Positions 187 to 21,897 are shown, counted from the first letter of the stretch. The stretch: 27,438 nucleotides of DNA from an uncultured bacterium (GCA_964510165.1 CAZEBC010000030.1:1-27438), one strand, 5' to 3'. Notes: a model not told the origin generated them from the sequence alone. Program-made: numbers and translations.

Positions 187-214
187 CTCGTCATCGTCAG
201 GCTTGCAGCCCCTC

Positions 215-251
215 AAAAGCGAAAGCCCGGATAGCCAAGGCTTTCCGGGCT
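215..251 (-). terminator. Probable intrinsic terminator of the two-gene coiled-coil operon
   Basis: The minus strand reads AGCCCGGA-aagccttggcta-TCCGGGCT-TTCGCTTTT: an 8-bp stem followed by a U-rich tail, ~24 nt after the stop at 275. Confidence 0.7.
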
Positions 252-274
252 GGTTGTATGACCGATGTTGTCAC

Positions 275-1246
275 TTAAAGCGGTGGAAGCGATTCGATCC
301 CTTTGCGGCCGATTTCGTCCTGAAGCTCATATGGTAGAAGCGCCGCCGCCTCCGCGCTTTCAACTCGTGACGGTTCCAGCCGGGCTTTGAGTTGTTCAGT
401 CTCGATTTCGGCTTGTCTGATCTGATCAAGATTCTTTTCGGTCGAGGTCACCAGGTAATCATTTCGGGCTTTGAGCTGCTTCACCGCTTTTTGGACATTA
501 CCCAAAGCCCCTTTCTGTATGAGCAACTCGCGATTAACCTGAACGAGCCTTGCGGATACCTGGTCCAGCCGTTCCTCGACCGCGGCCTGATCCGCTATCT
601 TCGACTCGATAGCGCCAATCTCGGACGACATCTGGTTGCGTTTCTGGAATTCCTGTTGGATGGCGAGGATTTCCTCGATGTTGCCGACGGCCCGATATTT
701 GGCAAGCTGGTCTTCCAGTTGCTTGTTCTTCATTGTAAGATCGGCGAGTTGCTCCTGGAGAGTGGGTCCACCCTTCAGGATCTTCTGAACGAATTCGACA
801 GCCGGCCGCGCCGCGAAGAATCCGCCCACTAACCCGACAAGAGCAACGGCCGCGATCGGGATGGCGGACTTTATCTTTCCCTTCCGTTTTCGGGGGGCAA
901 ATGCTTCAACTTGCGGGAGAGGCGAAACGGGTTCTTTTTCTTCGAGTTTCGGACCGCCAGGGGCAGCCCCTCCCTCTTCGAAATCCACGCCAAGGCCCAA
1001 ATCTTCATCGAGCGGCGCTTCCGTGACTCCAACCGGCTCTCCAAAGCCGCCTGAATCGGCAGGAGGACCCGAGGAAAAACCGCCGTCACTCATACCGGTC
1101 TCGAGGCTTATGGTATCGGCGTCGAAATCTTCCTCGAGGCCGGCCTCGCCGACGTCAAACATGTCCTCACCGGTGTCACCCGGTATCTCCTGGGATACGT
1201 CCGCCTTCTTCCGTTTCCGAAAAATTCCGAAAATCTTTTCGAACAT
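275..1246 (-). CDS. Uncharacterised bitopic membrane protein: amphipathic N-terminus, acidic linker, one TM helix, C-terminal coiled coil (paralog B)
   Basis: 323 aa with a GGAGG RBS upstream. MFEKIFGIFRKRKK N-terminus; D/E/G/P-rich region; basic stretch RKRKGKIK before the TM AIPIAAVALVGLVGGFFAA; heptad-rich C-terminus. Confidence 0.85.
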   Translation of the reverse strand: MFEKIFGIFRKRKKADVSQEIPGDTGEDMFDVGEAGLEEDFDADTISLETGMSDGGFSSGPPADSGGFGEPVGVTEAPLDEDLGLGVDFEEGGAAPGGPKLEEKEPVSPLPQVEAFAPRKRKGKIKSAIPIAAVALVGLVGGFFAARPAVEFVQKILKGGPTLQEQLADLTMKNKQLEDQLAKYRAVGNIEEILAIQQEFQKRNQMSSEIGAIESKIADQAAVEERLDQVSARLVQVNRELLIQKGALGNVQKAVKQLKARNDYLVTSTEKNLDQIRQAEIETEQLKARLEPSRVESAEAAALLPYELQDEIGRKGIESLPPL

Positions 1247-1266
1247 CTCTGCCCTCCAAACTTCGG

Positions 1267-2349
1267 TCAGTTGCCCGAGTCTGCCCCCTCAACCCCGGAC
1301 ATCCCGGCGGCTTCCCCTGAACTCGCAGACAAGTCAATGGGTTGTAACTGCGACAAGTGCCTCTCAAGCCGATCCAACTCCGCCTGAAGCTTCTCGATGT
1401 CTTGCATTCGCAACTCGGCCACCATCCGCTGTGAAAGCTCGGCGCGGCTCAACTCGACACGGAACCGTTCATAGGCTTGTGCCGTTTCGCGCGCCAGGGA
1501 ATTCACCTGAAGCCGGGTCTGCTCGATCTCGGATTGCACGTTCCTTATCTCCGAACGTGTATCGGCAATCTTGGATTCGAGCTCTTCCGTTTTCTTCACC
1601 AACTCATTGTAAGCGGATTCCTGTTCTTTGGCGAGATTATACTTGCTTTCGAATTCGCTCAAGGGACCTTGAGAATCGCGCAACTGGGCGATGTTCTGCT
1701 TGAGTTGCGTTACTTCGTTCGGGCCGCCCAGTTTAGTGAATTCCTTGACTTCCGACGCGAGTTTTGCGTTCTTGCGTTGTTCGGTATTGACCAAGGCTTG
1801 CAGGTCAAGCTTGGGCTGATCGGAGCCTTTGCCGATCATCTTGCTGACAAGAGGCCAGGCGAAGTACTGACCTACTCCGCCCAGTATCAGGCAGATAACC
1901 CCCACAACAACCAGGGTTACCACCTTCTTGACAGGAGAAGCAGGCTCAGGGGGCGCCTCGGCGGGCATCTCAAAGGGGGCTGGCGATTCGCCCTCCGCGA
2001 AGAAATCTCGCGGGGCTGCCGCCTCTTCTTCAGCGAGTCCGGTACCCCCCGATATCTCGTCGCTTATTGTACGCTCGTCAAAATCGCTTGCGCCCGTGGA
2101 GATATCGGTGTTCAGCCCTCCGAGTTCCGAGTCAATAAGTCCGGGGCTGCCCGGCTCCCCAACGGAAACCGCTGGCGCCGTGGACACTCTGTCAATCGGC
2201 TCCTCGAGGCCGCCGAGTTCCTCGAAGCCTGTGTCCAGCCCGAGTTCATCCAAGCCGGCCTCTTTGCCATTCATGATAGTTGTTTCGCCGCTTCGCTTTT
2301 GACGCCTTCGCGTGAAACGTTTGAAAAAGCCGGAAATCTTTTCAAACAT
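1267..2349 (-). CDS. Uncharacterised bitopic membrane protein: amphipathic N-terminus, acidic linker, one TM helix, C-terminal coiled coil (paralog A)
   Basis: 360 aa with a GAGGGA RBS. MFEKISGFFKRFTRRR N-terminus; acidic linker; KK before the TM VVTLVVVGVICLILGGVGQYFAW; long coiled coil. Same architecture as 275..1246. Confidence 0.85.
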   Translation of the reverse strand: MFEKISGFFKRFTRRRQKRSGETTIMNGKEAGLDELGLDTGFEELGGLEEPIDRVSTAPAVSVGEPGSPGLIDSELGGLNTDISTGASDFDERTISDEISGGTGLAEEEAAAPRDFFAEGESPAPFEMPAEAPPEPASPVKKVVTLVVVGVICLILGGVGQYFAWPLVSKMIGKGSDQPKLDLQALVNTEQRKNAKLASEVKEFTKLGGPNEVTQLKQNIAQLRDSQGPLSEFESKYNLAKEQESAYNELVKKTEELESKIADTRSEIRNVQSEIEQTRLQVNSLARETAQAYERFRVELSRAELSQRMVAELRMQDIEKLQAELDRLERHLSQLQPIDLSASSGEAAGMSGVEGADSGN

Positions 2350-2406
2350 GCGCGTATCCCTCTATTGATAGACTTGACGGTGCACGCTATGTCCTCTCTG
2401 GATGGA

Positions 2407-2435
2407 ATTATACATCAAAACCTGTTGATTGTCAA
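2407..2435 (-). promoter_or_regulatory. Consensus sigma70 promoter for the 2349/1246 operon
   Basis: The minus strand reads TTGACA (2435-2430), a 17-nt spacer atcaacaggttttgatg, then TATAAT (2412-2407). It lies in the intergenic gap, 57 nt upstream of the ATG at 2349. Confidence 0.88.
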
Positions 2436-16063: not shown

Positions 16064-16797
16064 GAAACCCCGCTCCCCACGCCGAGCGCCCTGACCTGTG
16101 ATTCGACCAGTTTCAAAATGCCACATCGAGCAAGGTCCAGCATCTCATCAAGCAACTTCCGGTCGAATGGCGCCTTCTCCGCGGTTCCCTGCACTTCAAT
16201 GATGCCGCCATGCTGCCCCATGACCACGTTGAGGTCGGCCTCCGCCCGGGAGTCCTCCTCGTAACAGAGATCGAGCATCGGTACGCCCTCGACGAGGCCG
16301 ACGCTTGTCGCGGCGACGAACTCCCTGATTGGCATGGCTTCGATGACGTTCGCGCTGACGAGACGGCTCAGCGCCTCATGCAGGGCGACAAAAGAGCCGG
16401 TGATGGCGGCGGTGCGGGTGCCGCCATCGGCCTGTATCACGTCGCAGTCAATGATGACGGTCCGCGGGCCAAGCGCAGAGAGGTCTGTCACCGAGCGCAG
16501 CGCGCGCCCCACAAGTCGCTGTATCTCGTAAGTGCGTCCTGAGGGCCCCCGATTGGTTCGAGTGTGAGTCGAGCGCGGCAGCATCGAGTACTCGGCAGTG
16601 ATCCATCCTTTGCCCGTGTCGCGGAGGAAATCGGGTGTTTTCTCCTCGACGGAGGCGGTGCATATCACTCTTGTGTTTCCAATCGAGATGAGCGCCGAGC
16701 CTTCCGCGTATCGGGCACATCCTCCGCTGATATCGACAGGCCGTATCTCGTTCCATTTTCGGCCGTCGAGCCTTCGGATTTCCTCGGGGTTACTCAA
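16060..16797 (-). CDS. rph: Ribonuclease PH
   Basis: R.DGR...[49 protein letters not shown] and EVQGTAE. The likely start is the TTG at 16797 (GAGGA upstream) rather than 16851. Confidence 0.95.
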
Positions 16798-18232
16798 CGG
16801 GGACTTCCTCGGGCTGCGGAGTTTCGATGTCACCTTCGGACGGGTCCACATCTATCAGAGTCGGGGGTATCTCCGGCGACCCGGTCTCGGGCGTCTGCTC
16901 TTCCTTGGCAGCCTCCGGCTGGTTCTGTTTTGCGATGCTTATGTTCTGCTCGAGTGACTTGAATATGTCATACCCTTGCAGAAGCTCAACGGCCCTCTGA
17001 AGTTGGATGTCGACGACCTCCTCCTTCTTCTGGTCATCGGCCTGCTTCTTCGGTTCGCCATTGACTGCGCCCGGAATCTCCATGCTGGCAGTGAGCAAAT
17101 GCGCCTTTTGCTCCCTGGTCATCTTGACCTCGATATCGGGGGCGATGCCGACCTTGTTGATCGAATGCCCATTGGGCGTCAGATACTTCGCAGTGGTGAG
17201 GCGCAGGCCGGAACCATCCGAAAGCGGAATAATGCTCTGAACCGAAGCCTTGCCGAACGTCTTCTCGCCAAGGACAACGGCCCGATGCCAGTCCTTGAGC
17301 GCGCCAGCGACTATCTCGGACGCGCTTGCACTGCCGCCGTTAACCAGAACCACCATGGGGATGTTCGGGTCAACGTTGGCGTCGTGTTTCGCCTTGAACT
17401 TCATGTTCTGGTCCGCGTGTCTGGACTCGGTGTAGACGATGAGTTTTCCCTTGTCGAGGAATTCATCGGCCACATCCGCCGCGACGTTGAGGAGTCCGCC
17501 GGGATTATTGCGCAGGTCAACGATGAGCGAGCGCATTTTGGCCTTCTTGAGTTCATCGAGCGCCTTCCGAAGTTCGACCGTGGTCTGCTCGCTGAACTCA
17601 CGAATGCGCACGCGCCCAATATCGTCGGTCAGCATCTCCCATGTGACGCTTCGGATCTTGATGTCGTCCCGCGTGAGCGTGAATTCGAGTTCCTCGGGCA
17701 TTTGGCCGTTGTCCTCGTGCAACCTGAGCACTGTGATGGTGACCTTGCTGCCCTTCGGTCCCCGAAGCTTTTTCACCGCCTCTTCCAGGACAAACCCCTG
17801 TGTGCTCTCGCCATCGATCTTGATTATCTTGTCATTCGCTTGCACGCCCGCTTTATACGCCGGAGTGTCTTCGATGGGAGAGACCACAGTGAGGACCTTG
17901 TTTTCGTCAAGGCTGACGACAATGCCCAGCCCGCCGAAGTGGCCCTCGGTTTCGACCTTCAGTTCCTTATAGGTATCGGGCGGCATGAACTGGCTGTGCG
18001 CGTCAAGCCCGTTCAACATGCCTTTGAGAGAATTGTAAATGAGGTCCCTCGTGGTGACCTCGTCGACGTATTCGTTCTGCACGATGCCCAGCGCATCGGA
18101 AAACAACTCAAGGTCGGTATATGTTGATCCCGTTTGGGCGGTCACATAGCTTGACAGGCCATTGCCTATCAGGATACCCATAACAAGGACCGATAGCAGA
18201 AACAGAACAAACTCATTGCGGTGACGTTGCAT
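16790..18232 (-). CDS. ctpA: S41 family carboxy-terminal processing protease (CtpA type, PDZ domain)
   Basis: N-terminal signal/anchor, LDAHS, FGGLGI (PDZ), [14 protein letters not shown] (catalytic Ser) and FGKASVQ (catalytic Lys); acidic C-terminal tail. Confidence 0.93.
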
Positions 18233-20242
18233 TTACTGCCTCCTTTGAAGCCAGACAGCCGGATCAACGGGCTGTCCATTCTCCCTTATTTCAAAGTACA
18301 AGAAAGAGCCTTTGATGGAGCCGGTCTCACCCACAAGCGCTATGGGCTGGCCCGCGCTCACCGGGTCCCCCTTCTTGACCAGTATTTCGGAACAATGAGA
18401 ATAGATGCTGTTGTATCCCCCTCCATGGTCGAGAATCACAAGCTTTCCATATCCTCTGAACCAATCACAATATGCGACCACGCCCTGATGAACAGCCCGA
18501 ATTTCGGAGCCTGCCTCAGCCGAGATATCCACTCCCAGGTGCCTGGTATAGGTGTCAGAGCCGGGATTCCTGATGCGCCCGAAGGGAAGCGTCATCTCTC
18601 CCGTCGTCGGCCACGGCAGGAGCCCTTTCATTTCCCTGAAGGGAACGGAGGCGGCTGGCAGGGCCTGCGTCTCCGCGCGTTGAGAGTCAATCAACTCCTG
18701 CAGGTTCCGAGCCGATGTCTCGAGGTCCGCGATGGCAGCCAGGTAGATGCTTTTCTGCTCGTTCAGATTGTCGAGGAGGACCTGACGTTGCTTCTTTTTC
18801 TCAAGGTATTGCTGGGCTCGCAGGCTCGTGGTCTCCGTATACAGAGTATCCAATTCGCCGCGTTTTTGCAAGTTTTCCTGCTGTTTCAGCAGTTCGAGGC
18901 GCAGCGAGCGGGTGCGTTCGAACGCACGAGCCTCTTCGCGCGCCAACAGCGAAATCATCTTTCGGCGCCTCGTCAGTTCCGACTGTGGAACATCCCACAG
19001 GATCACCTCAACCACGCTGGGTTCGCGGCTATTGCAGAGCATCCTCAGCCATTGTTCGAGCTCCCGCCGTGACTGCGAGTATTCGGCCTCGCAACGAGCG
19101 AGGTCGAGCCTGGCTTTTTCTATCTCATCCTGATTCAACAACACCTTCGATTCACCGTCCTTTATCTGACGAGAGAGACCGTCGAGTTCTTTGTCAATCT
19201 GCTCGAGTTCGCGGATGACTGCCGTCTGCTTTCGCCCTATCCTTTCGGCGGCCTCACGGTTTTGCTGTAATTCGATCGTGAGCTGTTTCAGCTCATCTCG
19301 GTATTTGGCCAATTCCGATTCCAGACCACTCTCCGCGTACGCGGTAGATGTAAGGAGCGCAAGCGCAAAGATGGTAAAGGCTCGGCCTATTGCGCTGCGA
19401 ACCGAGAACCAGCTCGCCAATACGGCGAGTATGGGACCAACGGCAGCGACCGCGACGAAGACCGATACGGGCAACTCGAGCGCCCGCCCCATCCTCGAGG
19501 AGACCATGAGCGAGGCCAACACCAGAACAGCAATCCCGACGGCAGACCCCGCCACCCCCTGAGCAATGCCTTCCACGGTGAACACACGGCGGATGAAGCC
19601 GCCGCTGGCGCCCATCATTTGGAGGGTATGAGTGCCGGTTTTTCGCGTGGCAGACGCAAGCCGTGCGATGTTGACCGTTATTATTCCGAAAACCACTACC
19701 CAGAAGACGCTTGCGCCAACGGTGAATGCGGCGACATCCCGCCGAAACTGAAGGTATCGCTCCAGAAGGAGCTCTTCGAATTTGACTTCGTCCACTCCAT
19801 CGAGAGAATCGATCCTGGAGGCGAGTTCCTTGATGGCGCCAAGGCCGCGACTGCCTTCAGTCAATCGTACCACCACGGATGCAGGCAGCACTTCATCGAG
19901 CGGAACTCCGCCCAAGTCCAGCGAATCGCGCACCGCGGAAAATAGCTCCTCGTACGATTGCTGTCCGGTAATCAACCTGGCATCGGCTACTCCCGGGATA
20001 GCCCCGATGTCAACCGCGAGTTTTCGCGAATCCTCTTCACTCATCCCCTGTGTGAGGAATGCGACCAGCTCCACCCGACTTTCCCAGCGCCTGAGTGTCG
20101 CATTCAGATTGATGGCGCACAGCGCGAATGCGCCGAGGGCAAACACCGCAACCGCCACGCATCCAGTCATCGCCAGGCTGAGGGTGCGATCACGGCGGAA
20201 ATTCCGCAGTCCCTCCCTAAGCGCCAGACTATAATTTTCCAT
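18233..20242 (-). CDS. FtsX-EnvC fusion: FtsX permease (aa ~1-284), signal-peptide-like linker (aa ~287-303), coiled coil and degenerate M23/LytM domain (aa 304-669)
   Basis: FtsX part: LREGLRNFRR, TM1, a large extracytoplasmic loop (LPASVVV...GVDEV), MGAS..FIRRVF..EG and three further TMs. EnvC part: long coiled coil, KGLLPWP..G, FG, HLGVDI, GYGKLVILDHGGG, and LYFEIR..GQPVDP..WL. One uninterrupted ORF. Confidence 0.88.
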   Translation of the reverse strand: MENYSLALREGLRNFRRDRTLSLAMTGCVAVAVFALGAFALCAINLNATLRRWESRVELVAFLTQGMSEEDSRKLAVDIGAIPGVADARLITGQQSYEELFSAVRDSLDLGGVPLDEVLPASVVVRLTEGSRGLGAIKELASRIDSLDGVDEVKFEELLLERYLQFRRDVAAFTVGASVFWVVVFGIITVNIARLASATRKTGTHTLQMMGASGGFIRRVFTVEGIAQGVAGSAVGIAVLVLASLMVSSRMGRALELPVSVFVAVAAVGPILAVLASWFSVRSAIGRAFTIFALALLTSTAYAESGLESELAKYRDELKQLTIELQQNREAAERIGRKQTAVIRELEQIDKELDGLSRQIKDGESKVLLNQDEIEKARLDLARCEAEYSQSRRELEQWLRMLCNSREPSVVEVILWDVPQSELTRRRKMISLLAREEARAFERTRSLRLELLKQQENLQKRGELDTLYTETTSLRAQQYLEKKKQRQVLLDNLNEQKSIYLAAIADLETSARNLQELIDSQRAETQALPAASVPFREMKGLLPWPTTGEMTLPFGRIRNPGSDTYTRHLGVDISAEAGSEIRAVHQGVVAYCDWFRGYGKLVILDHGGGYNSIYSHCSEILVKKGDPVSAGQPIALVGETGSIKGSFLYFEIRENGQPVDPAVWLQRRQ

Positions 20243-20269: not shown

Positions 20270-20941
20270 TCAACGGGTTACAGATTTCGCGAGGCGTCCG
20301 AGCGAACTCTTGTCAAGCATAATGGCCCGCTTGCCGAATCGCTCGGCGAGTTCCACGCGATGGGTGGCTATCACGACGGTCGAGCCGCGCAGGTGCGCCC
20401 TCTTGAACATTTCCGCCGCGTTCTCGATACAATGCCAATCGAGGACTTCATAGGGTTCGTCGGCAAGCACAATCTTGGGGCGGCGCGCGAGTGCGCGACA
20501 GATCTTGACCATCTGCTTCTCATTCTCCGACACTTGCCGGGGAAGGAGAGCCGCCTTGCCCAACAACCCGACCTCTCTCAGATACTCATGCGCTTCTTTC
20601 TTTGCATTGACAAAGTGCGAACTCGCAAGCTCAAGAGATATCTGGATGTTCTCAGCCAGCGTATGATGAGGAAGCAGCGGGTCATCCTGGAAGATAACCC
20701 CAATCTCGCGCCGATACCTCGGGATGTCGCGCTTCTTGATCTCGGAAAGATCGCAGCCGTCCACGATGACGCTGCCGCCGGCCGGCGCCTCTTGCAGCGC
20801 CAGAATCCTCAGGAGCGAGGTCTTGCCCGAACCCGCCTGTCCACAGACAAACACGAAATCGCCTCGTTCAATGTGCAGATTGAGTCCATCTATAATCTGG
20901 TGGCTGCCTTGGCGCAGGCTGAGGTCAAGCGTTATTATCAC
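20270..20941 (-). CDS. ftsE: FtsE-like ABC ATPase with degenerate signature motif and D-loop
   Basis: Walker A GQAGSGKTS; FtsE-typical IP.YRREIGVIFQD..LL; Walker B VLADEP; ATH switch; directly upstream of ftsX. The GTG start at 20941 overlaps the transketolase stop (GTGA). Confidence 0.85.
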   Translation of the reverse strand: MIITLDLSLRQGSHQIIDGLNLHIERGDFVFVCGQAGSGKTSLLRILALQEAPAGGSVIVDGCDLSEIKKRDIPRYRREIGVIFQDDPLLPHHTLAENIQISLELASSHFVNAKKEAHEYLREVGLLGKAALLPRQVSENEKQMVKICRALARRPKIVLADEPYEVLDWHCIENAAEMFKRAHLRGSTVVIATHRVELAERFGKRAIMLDKSSLGRLAKSVTR

Positions 20942-21897
20942 TCGGCAGTGGCCTTTCTCGAAAGCGCCTTGCGAGCGGCTTCGGCTACGTGGCCTGCGGT
21001 CAATCCATAGTATGCGCACAGACCGTCAGGTTCGCCCGACTGACCGAACACATCATTCATGCCCACTCGGAACACGGGGGTGGGAACGGTCTCGCAGATC
21101 ACTTCAGCCACAGCGCTGCCGAGACCGCCAATGATATTGTGCTCCTCAACGGTGACGATCGCGCCGGTCTCCCCCGCCGCGGACATGAGCATCTCGCGGT
21201 CTATCGGCTTGATGGTGCTCATGTTGATTACCCGGGCGCTGATGGAATCTCGCAGCAATAATTCGGAGGCGGCTATCGCGACCTGCACCATCGCGCCCGT
21301 CGCTATTATCGAGACGTCGGAGCCCTCCATGAGAAGCGAGGCCCTGCCAAGCTCGAATTCATAGTCCTGATCATAAATGACTGGAACACCGGAGCGGCCC
21401 AGCCTGAGGTAGGCCGGACCAGGGGTTTCGGCCAAGACTTCGACCGCCTTCTCCGTTTCTACCGCGTCAGCCGGAACAACCACCTTCATGTTCGGGATCG
21501 CCCGCATCAGGGCGATGTCCTCGATTGCCTGATGGGACGAGCCGTCCGGACCGACTCCGATCCCGGCATGTGAGGCGGCGACCTTCACATTCAGATTTGC
21601 ATAGCAGATGGTGTTGCGTATCTGCTCCCACGCCCTCCCGGTAGCGAAGATGGCGAATGTGCTCGCAAACGCGATTTTCCCCGAGGCTGCCAGACCGGCG
21701 GCCGTGCCCATCATATCGGCCTCGGCTATGCCCATATCGAAAAAACGTTCCGGAAACTTGTGTTTGAACTTAATGGTGTTGGTTGACTTGGCCAGGTCGG
21801 CATCGAGCACGACAATATCGCGGTTCCGTTCCCCGAGCTTTACAAGCGCATTCCCGTAGGCCACGCGGGTTGCAATCTTCTCACCGGGCTTCGACAT
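20938..21897 (-). CDS. Transketolase, C-terminal subunit
   Basis: ATRVAYG, LDADLAKST, FFDMGIAE, GPDGSSHQ and TVEEH...GGLG. ATG at 21897 with a strong RBS (AGGAGAAAGGA). Confidence 0.95.
   Translation of the reverse strand: MSKPGEKIATRVAYGNALVKLGERNRDIVVLDADLAKSTNTIKFKHKFPERFFDMGIAEADMMGTAAGLAASGKIAFASTFAIFATGRAWEQIRNTICYANLNVKVAASHAGIGVGPDGSSHQAIEDIALMRAIPNMKVVVPADAVETEKAVEVLAETPGPAYLRLGRSGVPVIYDQDYEFELGRASLLMEGSDVSIIATGAMVQVAIAASELLLRDSISARVINMSTIKPIDREMLMSAAGETGAIVTVEEHNIIGGLGSAVAEVICETVPTPVFRVGMNDVFGQSGEPDGLCAYYGLTAGHVAEAARKALSRKATAE

Follow-up and report, generated by a model that had tools for sequence, protein, structure and literature searches.

What is the function of two adjacent genes whose products resemble each other, belong to no curated protein family and are retained side by side in related genomes? 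The question is raised by a locus in contig CAZEBC010000030.1 (assembly GCA_964510165.1) of an uncultured bacterium, a stretch of 27,438 nucleotides (nt) which is here called the window, and in which a promoter, gene A, a short gap, gene B and a hairpin follow one another on the minus strand (Table 1). An initial annotation, made from the sequence alone, had described a self-contained operon of two paralogous membrane coiled-coil proteins, and its promoter, its two genes, the ribosome-binding site of each and the 20-nt gap between them were all recovered on that strand. The best reading at which we arrive is a lineage-specific inner-membrane stalk or adaptor, probably of heteromeric composition.

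Paralogy, retention and membrane topology of the pair

By the comparison of their sequences A and B are true paralogues. BLASTP aligns the two proteins over 321 columns with 23% identity (E 3e-10), and hhalign aligns the A profile with the B profile at a probability of 99.0% (E 3.2e-18) over 182 columns, a region spanning the transmembrane (TM) segment and 150 further residues. These profiles represent alignments of 39 A and 44 B sequences, to which the conservation counts given below refer; the homologues found number 46 for A, none of them with a Pfam domain, and likewise 46 for B. The initial annotation had counted by hand 19 identities in 115 ungapped positions, a count that proved exact, and had proposed shuffled controls, in which 3 of 5000 full shuffles and 13 of 5000 heptad-register shuffles came up to this number. 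At offsets from -14 to +14 no alternative register of the same ungapped comparison exceeds 13 identities. The duplication is also old, as had been supposed: in a tree of the membrane-plus-helix region, built on one in three sequences of each alignment, the A-types and the B-types of two families of the class fall into separate clades (support 94/96 and 99/99), and the duplication therefore predates the split of the two families.

The closest relatives with a name, at 77-80% identity, carry the label Candidatus Abyssubacteria, and A is present in 10 of the 11 species genomes of the phylum, the genome without it being 77% complete. Retention of the tandem, which the initial annotation had put forward as a point to be checked in relatives, holds throughout, A being followed by B in all ten genomes with a match. 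Eight of these tandems are complete pairs with gaps of 17-50 nt; in another, A is cut by a contig end, and the last is a divergent pair from a different family and of much higher guanine-plus-cytosine (GC) content, consisting of an A-like gene (MFERITGFFRRF...) and then a B-like gene (MALFDRFRRGKR...). Orthologue identity ranges from 39 to 77% for A and from 44 to 80% for B, and the motifs described below stay invariant despite this drift.

Both proteins begin with a short N-terminal peptide followed by a basic run and contain a single TM segment, as first described. In 36 of 39 sequences of A and 41 of 44 of B, lysine and arginine are more numerous before this segment than after it, the reverse never being seen, and this positive-inside signal agrees with the N-in topology originally proposed. 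Since the tail of A carries 28 acidic residues before the TM segment, and since its N-terminus lacks signal-peptide character, export of the tail is unlikely. The best reading of these sequence features is that A and B are bitopic inner-membrane proteins with a cytoplasmic N-terminus.

The most strictly conserved residues of both proteins sit in these cytoplasmic tails, beginning with an MFEK-x-x-G-x-F peptide and its basic run. At the N-terminus of A residues M1, F2, E3, S6, G7, F9, K10 and F12 are invariant, position 4 is K or R, and a basic stretch, KRFTRRRQKR, lies downstream; the hydrophobic moment of the first 12 residues, 0.69 at 100 degrees, is reached by 126 of 5000 shuffles. The N-terminus of B reads MFEKIFGIFRKR, with M1, F2 and K4 conserved and RKRKK thereafter. 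The linkers which follow are acidic and rich in glycine and proline in both proteins, as the initial annotation had it: residues 21-138 of A hold 28 D+E, 4 K+R and 24% G+P, and residues 16-117 of B hold 27 D+E, 2 K+R and 27% G+P, so that the linker of B measures about 100 amino acids (aa) and not the 120-140 aa proposed. The first conserved motif of A comprises S20, G21, E22, T23, T24 and I25, all invariant, and M26, conserved in at least 90% of the sequences; in the second motif D89, T94, S96, D97 and E98 are invariant, with F90, D91 and G101 at 90% or above. In the corresponding motif of B residues A43, T45, I46, S47, L48, E49, T50 and G51 are invariant.

An AlphaFold2 model of A leaves residues 1-138 disordered and places helices beyond the membrane segment at 183-206, 210-226 and 230-334, the first two of which are bounded by conserved LGGP and QGP turns. 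At the textbook rise of 1.5 Å per residue the last of these helices would measure ~15 nm if straight. The helical part, a coiled coil in the initial annotation, is not one continuous coiled coil, conserved glycine/proline turns separating the helices of A.

Relatives beyond the tandem pair

Neither protein could be placed in a Pfam, NCBIfam or PDB-sequence family, in line with the statement of the initial annotation that no family was assignable. Scans of A and B against Pfam and NCBIfam gave sub-threshold coiled-coil noise only (SMC, Rad50, OVT1, crescentin), a scan of all 83 members revealed no consistent family (the commonest, RNase_Y_N, in 13 of 83), and PDB sequence profiles returned a best E of 0.006-0.02 for A (designed helix bundles, IF1, Lpp) and nothing for B. 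Structural comparison of the A model was similarly uninformative: Foldseek against the PDB found no match at E <=0.001, the VIA wide search found generic single long helices only (Z <=7.7), and the ESM Atlas gave feature scores no better than chance (at most 0.80), the structure rows (PcsB coiled coil, M23, NlpC/P60) having template-modelling scores <0.5 by query.

The pair is not an orphan, and this part of the earlier picture has to be corrected, since it is related to a larger uncharacterised family of Hydrogenedentota. A search with a combined A+B profile of 1.84 billion representative proteins yielded 64 matches at E <=0.001 and 29 at <=1e-10. Beyond the orthologues these comprise divergent pair types, two proteins of like architecture with the N-termini MGLGDFFKRFRK and MRFLDRFRRR, and a family of longer proteins, hereafter the long form, which is encoded by a single gene of about 570-630 aa. 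Alignment of the long family by hhalign gives a probability of 99.0% with A (E 2.5e-18) and of 99.1% with B (E 9.2e-19); the homology covers the TM helix and about 150 periplasmic residues, including a Y/F-[KR]-x-[VL]-G turn, and in this genome the long-family profile finds A and B only (6e-14 and 5e-14). All ten long-form records that carry names are assigned to Hydrogenedentes/Hydrogenedentota, the lineage within which the Abyssubacteria were first described (PMC6121073). A planctomycete origin of the long form, guessed from DUF1559/N_methyl neighbours, was rejected on the strength of these ten records.

On these alignments the A-B pair and the long form are one uncharacterised, lineage-specific superfamily, of which A-B is the two-gene, domain-poor form and the protein of Hydrogenedentota the one-gene form with an extra C-terminal domain. 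The two forms have in common the homologous TM-plus-helix module, the helix layout and an acidic or proline-rich cytoplasmic tail with threonine motifs; a model of a 370-aa long-form sequence has the same helix-turn-helix-turn-long-helix layout as the model of A. They differ in that the long form is a single gene, lacks the MFEK N-terminal peptide and carries a C-terminal alpha/beta domain of about 150 residues, modelled with a predicted local distance difference test score (pLDDT) >90 and with strands at 261-319, whose motifs are W-A-E-C ... Y-[FY]-R-T-L-D-G-K. A and B end shortly past the long helix and are without this domain. With the long-form model as query Foldseek gave nothing at E <=0.001, and the VIA wide search gave three-helix bundles only, at residues 188-260 (Z <=9.7), below the level that the tool regards as meaningful for helical models. 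An origin of A and B by the splitting of one long gene into two was discarded, each having its own tail, TM segment and stalk; in the tree the deeper placement of the pair relative to the long form is poorly supported (55/41).

Several further observations concern the ends of these proteins. The tail motifs of the long form are strongly conserved (GLGNLPPLSDFDS, DFSPETPEIGPGP, METPxFDSAFG and TPxPDF). The last four residues of the B family are LSSL in 16, LSSS in 7 and LSAL in 4 of 44 sequences, and the long form ends in FDSL, YSSL or FSSL in 15 of 34 sequences, an ...S-[SD]-L end being common to both. Proteins that end freely in S-x-L recall the class I ligands of PDZ domains, and the window also encodes a periplasmic PDZ protease (16790-18232).

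Taken by themselves, the genes and their promoter, the paralogy and retention of the pair, its topology signal and motifs, and its homology to the long form are in our judgement very likely to be right.

A proposed paired stalk weighed against its alternatives

How could two such proteins act? In the explanation that we favour A and B would be co-transcribed, anciently duplicated bitopic proteins of the inner membrane, each with an acidic, disordered cytoplasmic tail of ~100-140 residues, one TM segment and an all-helical periplasmic stalk composed of two short helices and one of about 105 residues. The stalks of A and B would pair side by side, in parallel since both are anchored in the same way, to form a rod projecting into the periplasm. 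The N-terminal peptide would lie on the inner leaflet, as the membrane-targeting peptides of bactofilins do, and with the peptide so bound the acidic tail would be tethered at both ends and form a loop. The invariant tail motifs (SGETTIM and DFDERTISDE in A, DFDADTISLETG in B) would dock a cytoplasmic partner, such that the pair would serve as a scaffold or adaptor linking a cytoplasmic factor to a periplasmic position or partner. Pairing of the stalks, binding of the peptide to the membrane, docking through the motifs and action as a scaffold are inferred, and our confidence in the explanation as a whole, these steps included, is tentative and a little short of an even chance.

The comparison with bactofilins is instructive for the N-terminal peptide. 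The bactofilin consensus MFSKKKK is reported to insert its Met and Phe into the bilayer and to bind phosphatidylglycerol through its lysines, and the bactofilin peptide (MFSKQAKS) shares with A and B Met1, Phe2, Lys4 and further basic residues, the features reported to mediate binding to anionic membranes (PMC12448750). In contrast to bactofilins, the peptide stands here on a TM-anchored protein and is longer and Phe-richer, and its membrane binding is predicted. The likeness is a functional analogy and not homology.

The pairing of the stalks is addressed by a modelled complex of A(135-345) and B(118-323), which scored 0.55 against 0.00 for the best of three controls, with a partner pLDDT of at least 75 and a contact agreement between runs of at least 73%. 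At the pass mark applied, 116 of 157 solved complexes pass, as do 2 of 215 mismatched pairs. The passing scores <=0.60 include both of these mismatches and only 18 of the solved complexes, and for this reason the verdict on the A-B complex was weak support. The model is thus consistent with the heterodimer suggested by the initial annotation, at the strength of that verdict.

A number of points weigh against the proposed stalk, or against particular steps of it. The controls of the complex were unrelated natural proteins and not coiled coils, structural models tend to lay long helices side by side, and the score covers A+B only, homo-oligomers being just as possible. The first turn (VGN) is retained in B, and G246 and N250 are invariant within its presumed long helix, so that a continuous two-stranded rod is not assured. 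As to the N-terminal peptide, the first 12 residues of B are not significantly amphipathic, 1813 of 5000 shuffles reaching their moment, and AlphaFold2 leaves the peptide of A non-helical with a pLDDT of about 50. Partners in the cytoplasm or the periplasm were not identified, and the neighbourhood gave no functional clue except a methyltransferase. The neighbours of the long form likewise vary, the 12 loci showing RbsD/FucU in five, LptF/LptG upstream in three and BacA downstream in three.

One alternative is that A and B form separate homo-oligomeric stalks, independent or redundant, and that the tandem merely reflects the duplication. Paralogues of the same architecture commonly self-associate, and the sole test of A-B pairing is the weakly supportive one just described. 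Set against this, the tandem, its gap of 17-50 nt and one promoter are kept in all ten genomes with a match, and its retention survives a shift in GC content and divergence of the proteins to about 40% identity. Moreover, the invariant motifs and the C-termini are family-specific and differ between A and B, which argues for distinct, non-redundant roles. We consider separate homo-oligomers unlikely.

A second possibility concerns the tails, which might be phospho-threonine platforms, a Hanks-type kinase phosphorylating the Thr motifs and FHA proteins docking on them. Such a mechanism would make the pair a membrane-bound substrate or adaptor in Ser/Thr-kinase signalling rather than a passive scaffold; it would refine the stalk or adaptor reading and does not exclude it. 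All 39 A sequences have T23, T24 and T94, and all 44 B sequences have T45 and T50. FHA domains prefer pT-x-x-D/I/L, and the residue at Thr +3 in A and B is D, L or M (TISD, TISL, TTIM), a fit with this preference. Related E/D-T-hydrophobic motifs are retained in the tails of divergent relatives and of the long family, the divergent A-types keeping ETTA(M/I)/ETAML and ETFETL-type motifs and the long family ETP-x-F/I, and this genome contains 14 FHA-domain matches above the Pfam cut-off. However, the motif fit is loose and Thr is common in acidic disordered regions, the scan of the open reading frames (ORFs) of the window found no kinase or FHA gene linked to the locus, and the abundance of FHA proteins in the genome provides an opportunity rather than a link. 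We regard phosphorylation of the tails as a rather doubtful proposition.

A third explanation would derive the pair from a TtpB-like (DUF3450) ancestor and attach it, as an accessory, to a machine of Exb/Tol type for energy transduction or envelope transport. Proteins with DUF3450 occur alongside TonB2 systems and in some cases as fusions with ExbB-type subunits. In the long form DUF3450 (PF11932) is matched above the cut-off of 32.6 bits by P0111 (37.6 bits) and L090 (34.4 bits), others reaching 27-30, and LptF/LptG lie directly upstream in three of its 12 loci (L067, L104 and L110). Iron transport through TonB2 is reported to require TtpB2, which is a DUF3450 protein (PMC6957404), and DUF3450 is reported as an appendage of Exb/Tol-type A subunits (PMC12505986). 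But the match begins where the homology with A and B stops, and the matching region is missing from both; DUF3450 is listed neither for A or B nor among the top 25 families over the 83 members, and no match above the cut-off occurs in this genome. ExbB, ExbD and TonB genes are absent among the 25 scanned ORFs of the window, and the neighbours of the long form are variable, as noted. A role of this kind appears very unlikely.

Least credible, and in our view highly improbable, is the division role that the initial annotation had listed as a candidate and loosely likened to FtsB/FtsL, here taken as a divisome or elongation heterodimer of FtsB/FtsL or DivIC type bridging cytoplasm and periplasm, for although the plan of two related bitopic N-in proteins with periplasmic coiled coils is shared and six of 83 family members give sub-threshold DivIC matches (best E 2.5e-4), the genome has its own DivIC-family ORFs above the cut-off (one of 106 aa at 58.2 bits and one of 163 aa at 32.8 bits, the latter also giving the best FtsL match at 17.4 bits), A and B have no DivIC (PF04977) or FtsL (PF04999) match at E <=1 and are three times longer, no dcw genes adjoin them, and the FtsE/FtsX-like genes of the window lie 16 kb off with unrelated genes between. 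The likeness nevertheless extends to parallel pairing of the coiled coils in FtsB/FtsL and to an adaptor-like nature with no enzymatic domain, and the differences to the acidic, motif-bearing tails of 100-140 aa in A and B and to a stalk of about 150 residues as opposed to a leucine zipper of about 30-40.

Returning to the stalk or adaptor reading, other known systems offer partial parallels. PilN/PilO and GspL/GspM are also tandem paralogous bitopic pairs with one TM segment, in which an N-terminal peptide docks a cytoplasmic partner and a periplasmic coiled coil heterodimerises; in distinction to these, the model of A is all helical and has no ferredoxin-like periplasmic core, neither A nor B has a match to their Pfam families at E <=1, and the locus lies outside pilus or secretion clusters. 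Lpp, a 58-residue outer-membrane lipoprotein which forms a trimer bound to peptidoglycan, is similarly a long rigid periplasmic helical rod that could set or sense distance, whereas A and B are anchored in the inner membrane, are much longer and have cytoplasmic tails; the sequence-profile match to Lpp (E 0.02) is at noise level. HubP/FimV proteins are characterised by a LysM peptidoglycan-binding domain and a FimV C-terminal motif, and no LysM or FimV-type match in Pfam or NCBIfam was found for A or B at E <=1.

The locus, its neighbours and the significance of the pair

Table 1. Coordinates of the A-B locus, counted from the first letter of the window
Feature	Position	Strand	Basis or remark
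Sigma-70-type promoter, TTGACA-17-TATAAT	2407..2435	-	12/12 consensus match
Ribosome-binding site of gene A, AGAGGGA, 7 nt 5' of ATG	2357..2363	-	Read from sequence
Gene A, 360 aa: N-terminal peptide, acidic disordered tail, one TM helix, periplasmic helices	1267..2349	-	ORF
A residues 1-12, MFEKISGFFKRF: membrane-targeting-like amphipathic peptide, then basic run	2314..2349	-	
A residues 20-26, SGETTIM: invariant cytoplasmic motif	2272..2292	-	
A residues 89-101, DFDERTISDEISG: conserved cytoplasmic motif	2047..2085	-	
A residues 139-171: predicted helix with membrane anchor	1837..1935	-	AlphaFold2; top hydrophobic 19-residue window begins at 143
A residues 230-334: predicted single 105-residue helix, coiled-coil-type stalk	1348..1662	-	pLDDT >90 for about 240-330
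A-B intergenic gap, 20 nt	1247-1266	-	Sequence
Ribosome-binding site of gene B, GGAGGG, 5 nt 5' of ATG, within A-B gap	1252..1257	-	Read from sequence
Gene B, 323 aa: paralogue of A, same architecture	275..1246	-	ORF
B residues 40-51, DFDADTISLETG: conserved cytoplasmic motif corresponding to DFDERTISDE in A	1094..1129	-	
B residues about 126-148: predicted TM anchor, RKRKGKIK just before	803..871	-	Top hydrophobic window begins at 128
Terminator-like hairpin and interrupted U-tract 3' of gene B	213..251	-	Fold
Start of zinc-ribbon S-adenosylmethionine methyltransferase, cut by contig end	1..216	-	CxxC...CxxCGLFYTNPR N-terminus

The promoter starts 38 nt past the stop codon of an unrelated gene of the LysE family and is itself conserved, being kept in nine of nine genomes (a 12/12 match in seven and 11/12 in two) at a distance of 54-67 nt from the start of A. 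The initial annotation had taken its perfect consensus to suggest an abundant structural protein. Such a promoter is, however, not special in this genome, since perfect TTGACA-N17-TATAAT occurs at 54 sites in 4.17 Mb, compared with none for the reversed pattern, and some of these sites drive regulator genes. The downstream elements were examined at 30 of the 54 sites: 22 ORFs were scanned, seven possibly spurious ones of <115 aa were set aside, and the remaining site, with no qualifying ORF, precedes a tRNA recognised by eye. Downstream of these 30 promoters lie ribosomal protein S12, LysRS, PilM and one FHA protein, and regulators too, of the TetR, MerR, LexA and PhaR types. In this lineage promoters close to the consensus seem to be usual. 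Of six sequencing runs that contain the stretch, none is listed as RNA. Conservation of the promoter accordingly shows that expression of the pair matters, and not that its products are abundant.

The 17-nt spacer is also conserved in the eight closer genomes (TTGACAA-n-CAA-n3-5-GTTTTGA-nn-TATAAT), the A proteins of which are only about 50% identical, and is not conserved in the divergent genome G001. The spacer might serve as an operator, or its conservation might reflect a constraint on its shape. In the window the spacer (2413-2429, minus strand) contains ATCAA-n6-TTGAT.

At the other end of the unit a hairpin of 11 pairs (about 251..224) is followed by UUCGCUUUUG. The 70-nt stretch that holds it has a minimum free energy of -25 kcal/mol (z = -2.07), equalled by 5 of 200 shuffles, and a simple terminator scan picked up only the inner part of the hairpin. 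Of the terminator first annotated, the hairpin and an interrupted U-tract are present, but the structure is terminator-like and not proven.

A methyltransferase gene lies 3' of B in all six genomes in which downstream DNA is seen, a count which leaves out three further genomes with flanks too short; the gap from B is 58-144 nt in close relatives and zero in the divergent G001. Full-length neighbouring methyltransferases match Methyltransf_23 at 6e-28 and 2e-26. The protein carries an N-terminal CxxC...CxxC zinc ribbon, and RecG comes next in two loci (L001 and L004). A functional link between the methyltransferase and the A-B pair is possible, and we treat it as a neighbour of the unit. The initial description of the operon as self-contained is accordingly likely for the window but, with the methyltransferase following B in six of six genomes and once at zero gap, not certain for the lineage.

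Elsewhere in the window a 669-aa ORF (18233-20242, minus strand) has the extracellular domain of FtsX at residues 57-153 and an M23 peptidase domain at its C-terminal end (567-661), and looks like an FtsX-EnvC-type fusion. It is flanked on its 5' side by an FtsE-like ABC ATPase (20270-21019, minus strand) and on its 3' side by the PDZ protease mentioned above, an S41/PDZ C-terminal processing protease encoded on the same strand.

What does the pair mean for the biology of these organisms? Paired bitopic coiled-coil proteins are the usual bacterial means of coupling cytoplasmic and periplasmic halves, as in the divisome, pili and secretion systems, and A-B, a conserved and lineage-defining pair without a curated family, is an architecture variant of this familiar kind. 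What is unusual is the combination, on one tail, of a membrane-targeting-like peptide and a TM anchor with invariant Thr motifs and a stalk of ~15 nm, and the evolutionary link from the A-B pair to a one-gene form in the sister lineage is clear. A more far-reaching conjecture, which we regard as a long shot, is that the pair and its long-form relatives constitute an undescribed trans-envelope organiser, in which a rigid stalk in the periplasm would be coupled across the membrane to the looped acidic tail, the Thr motifs of the tail being phosphorylated and read by FHA proteins. If true, this would be a kinase-controlled ruler or landmark positioning envelope machinery, be it for lipopolysaccharide transport, wall synthesis or polarity, and it would sit in a phylum-level lineage without cultured members. 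Since no long-standing question is touched and the organism is uncultured, the immediate impact is modest; the pair nonetheless marks a piece of envelope biology in Abyssubacteria/Hydrogenedentota, for which the motifs, the peptide and the pairing offer specific handles that can be tested.

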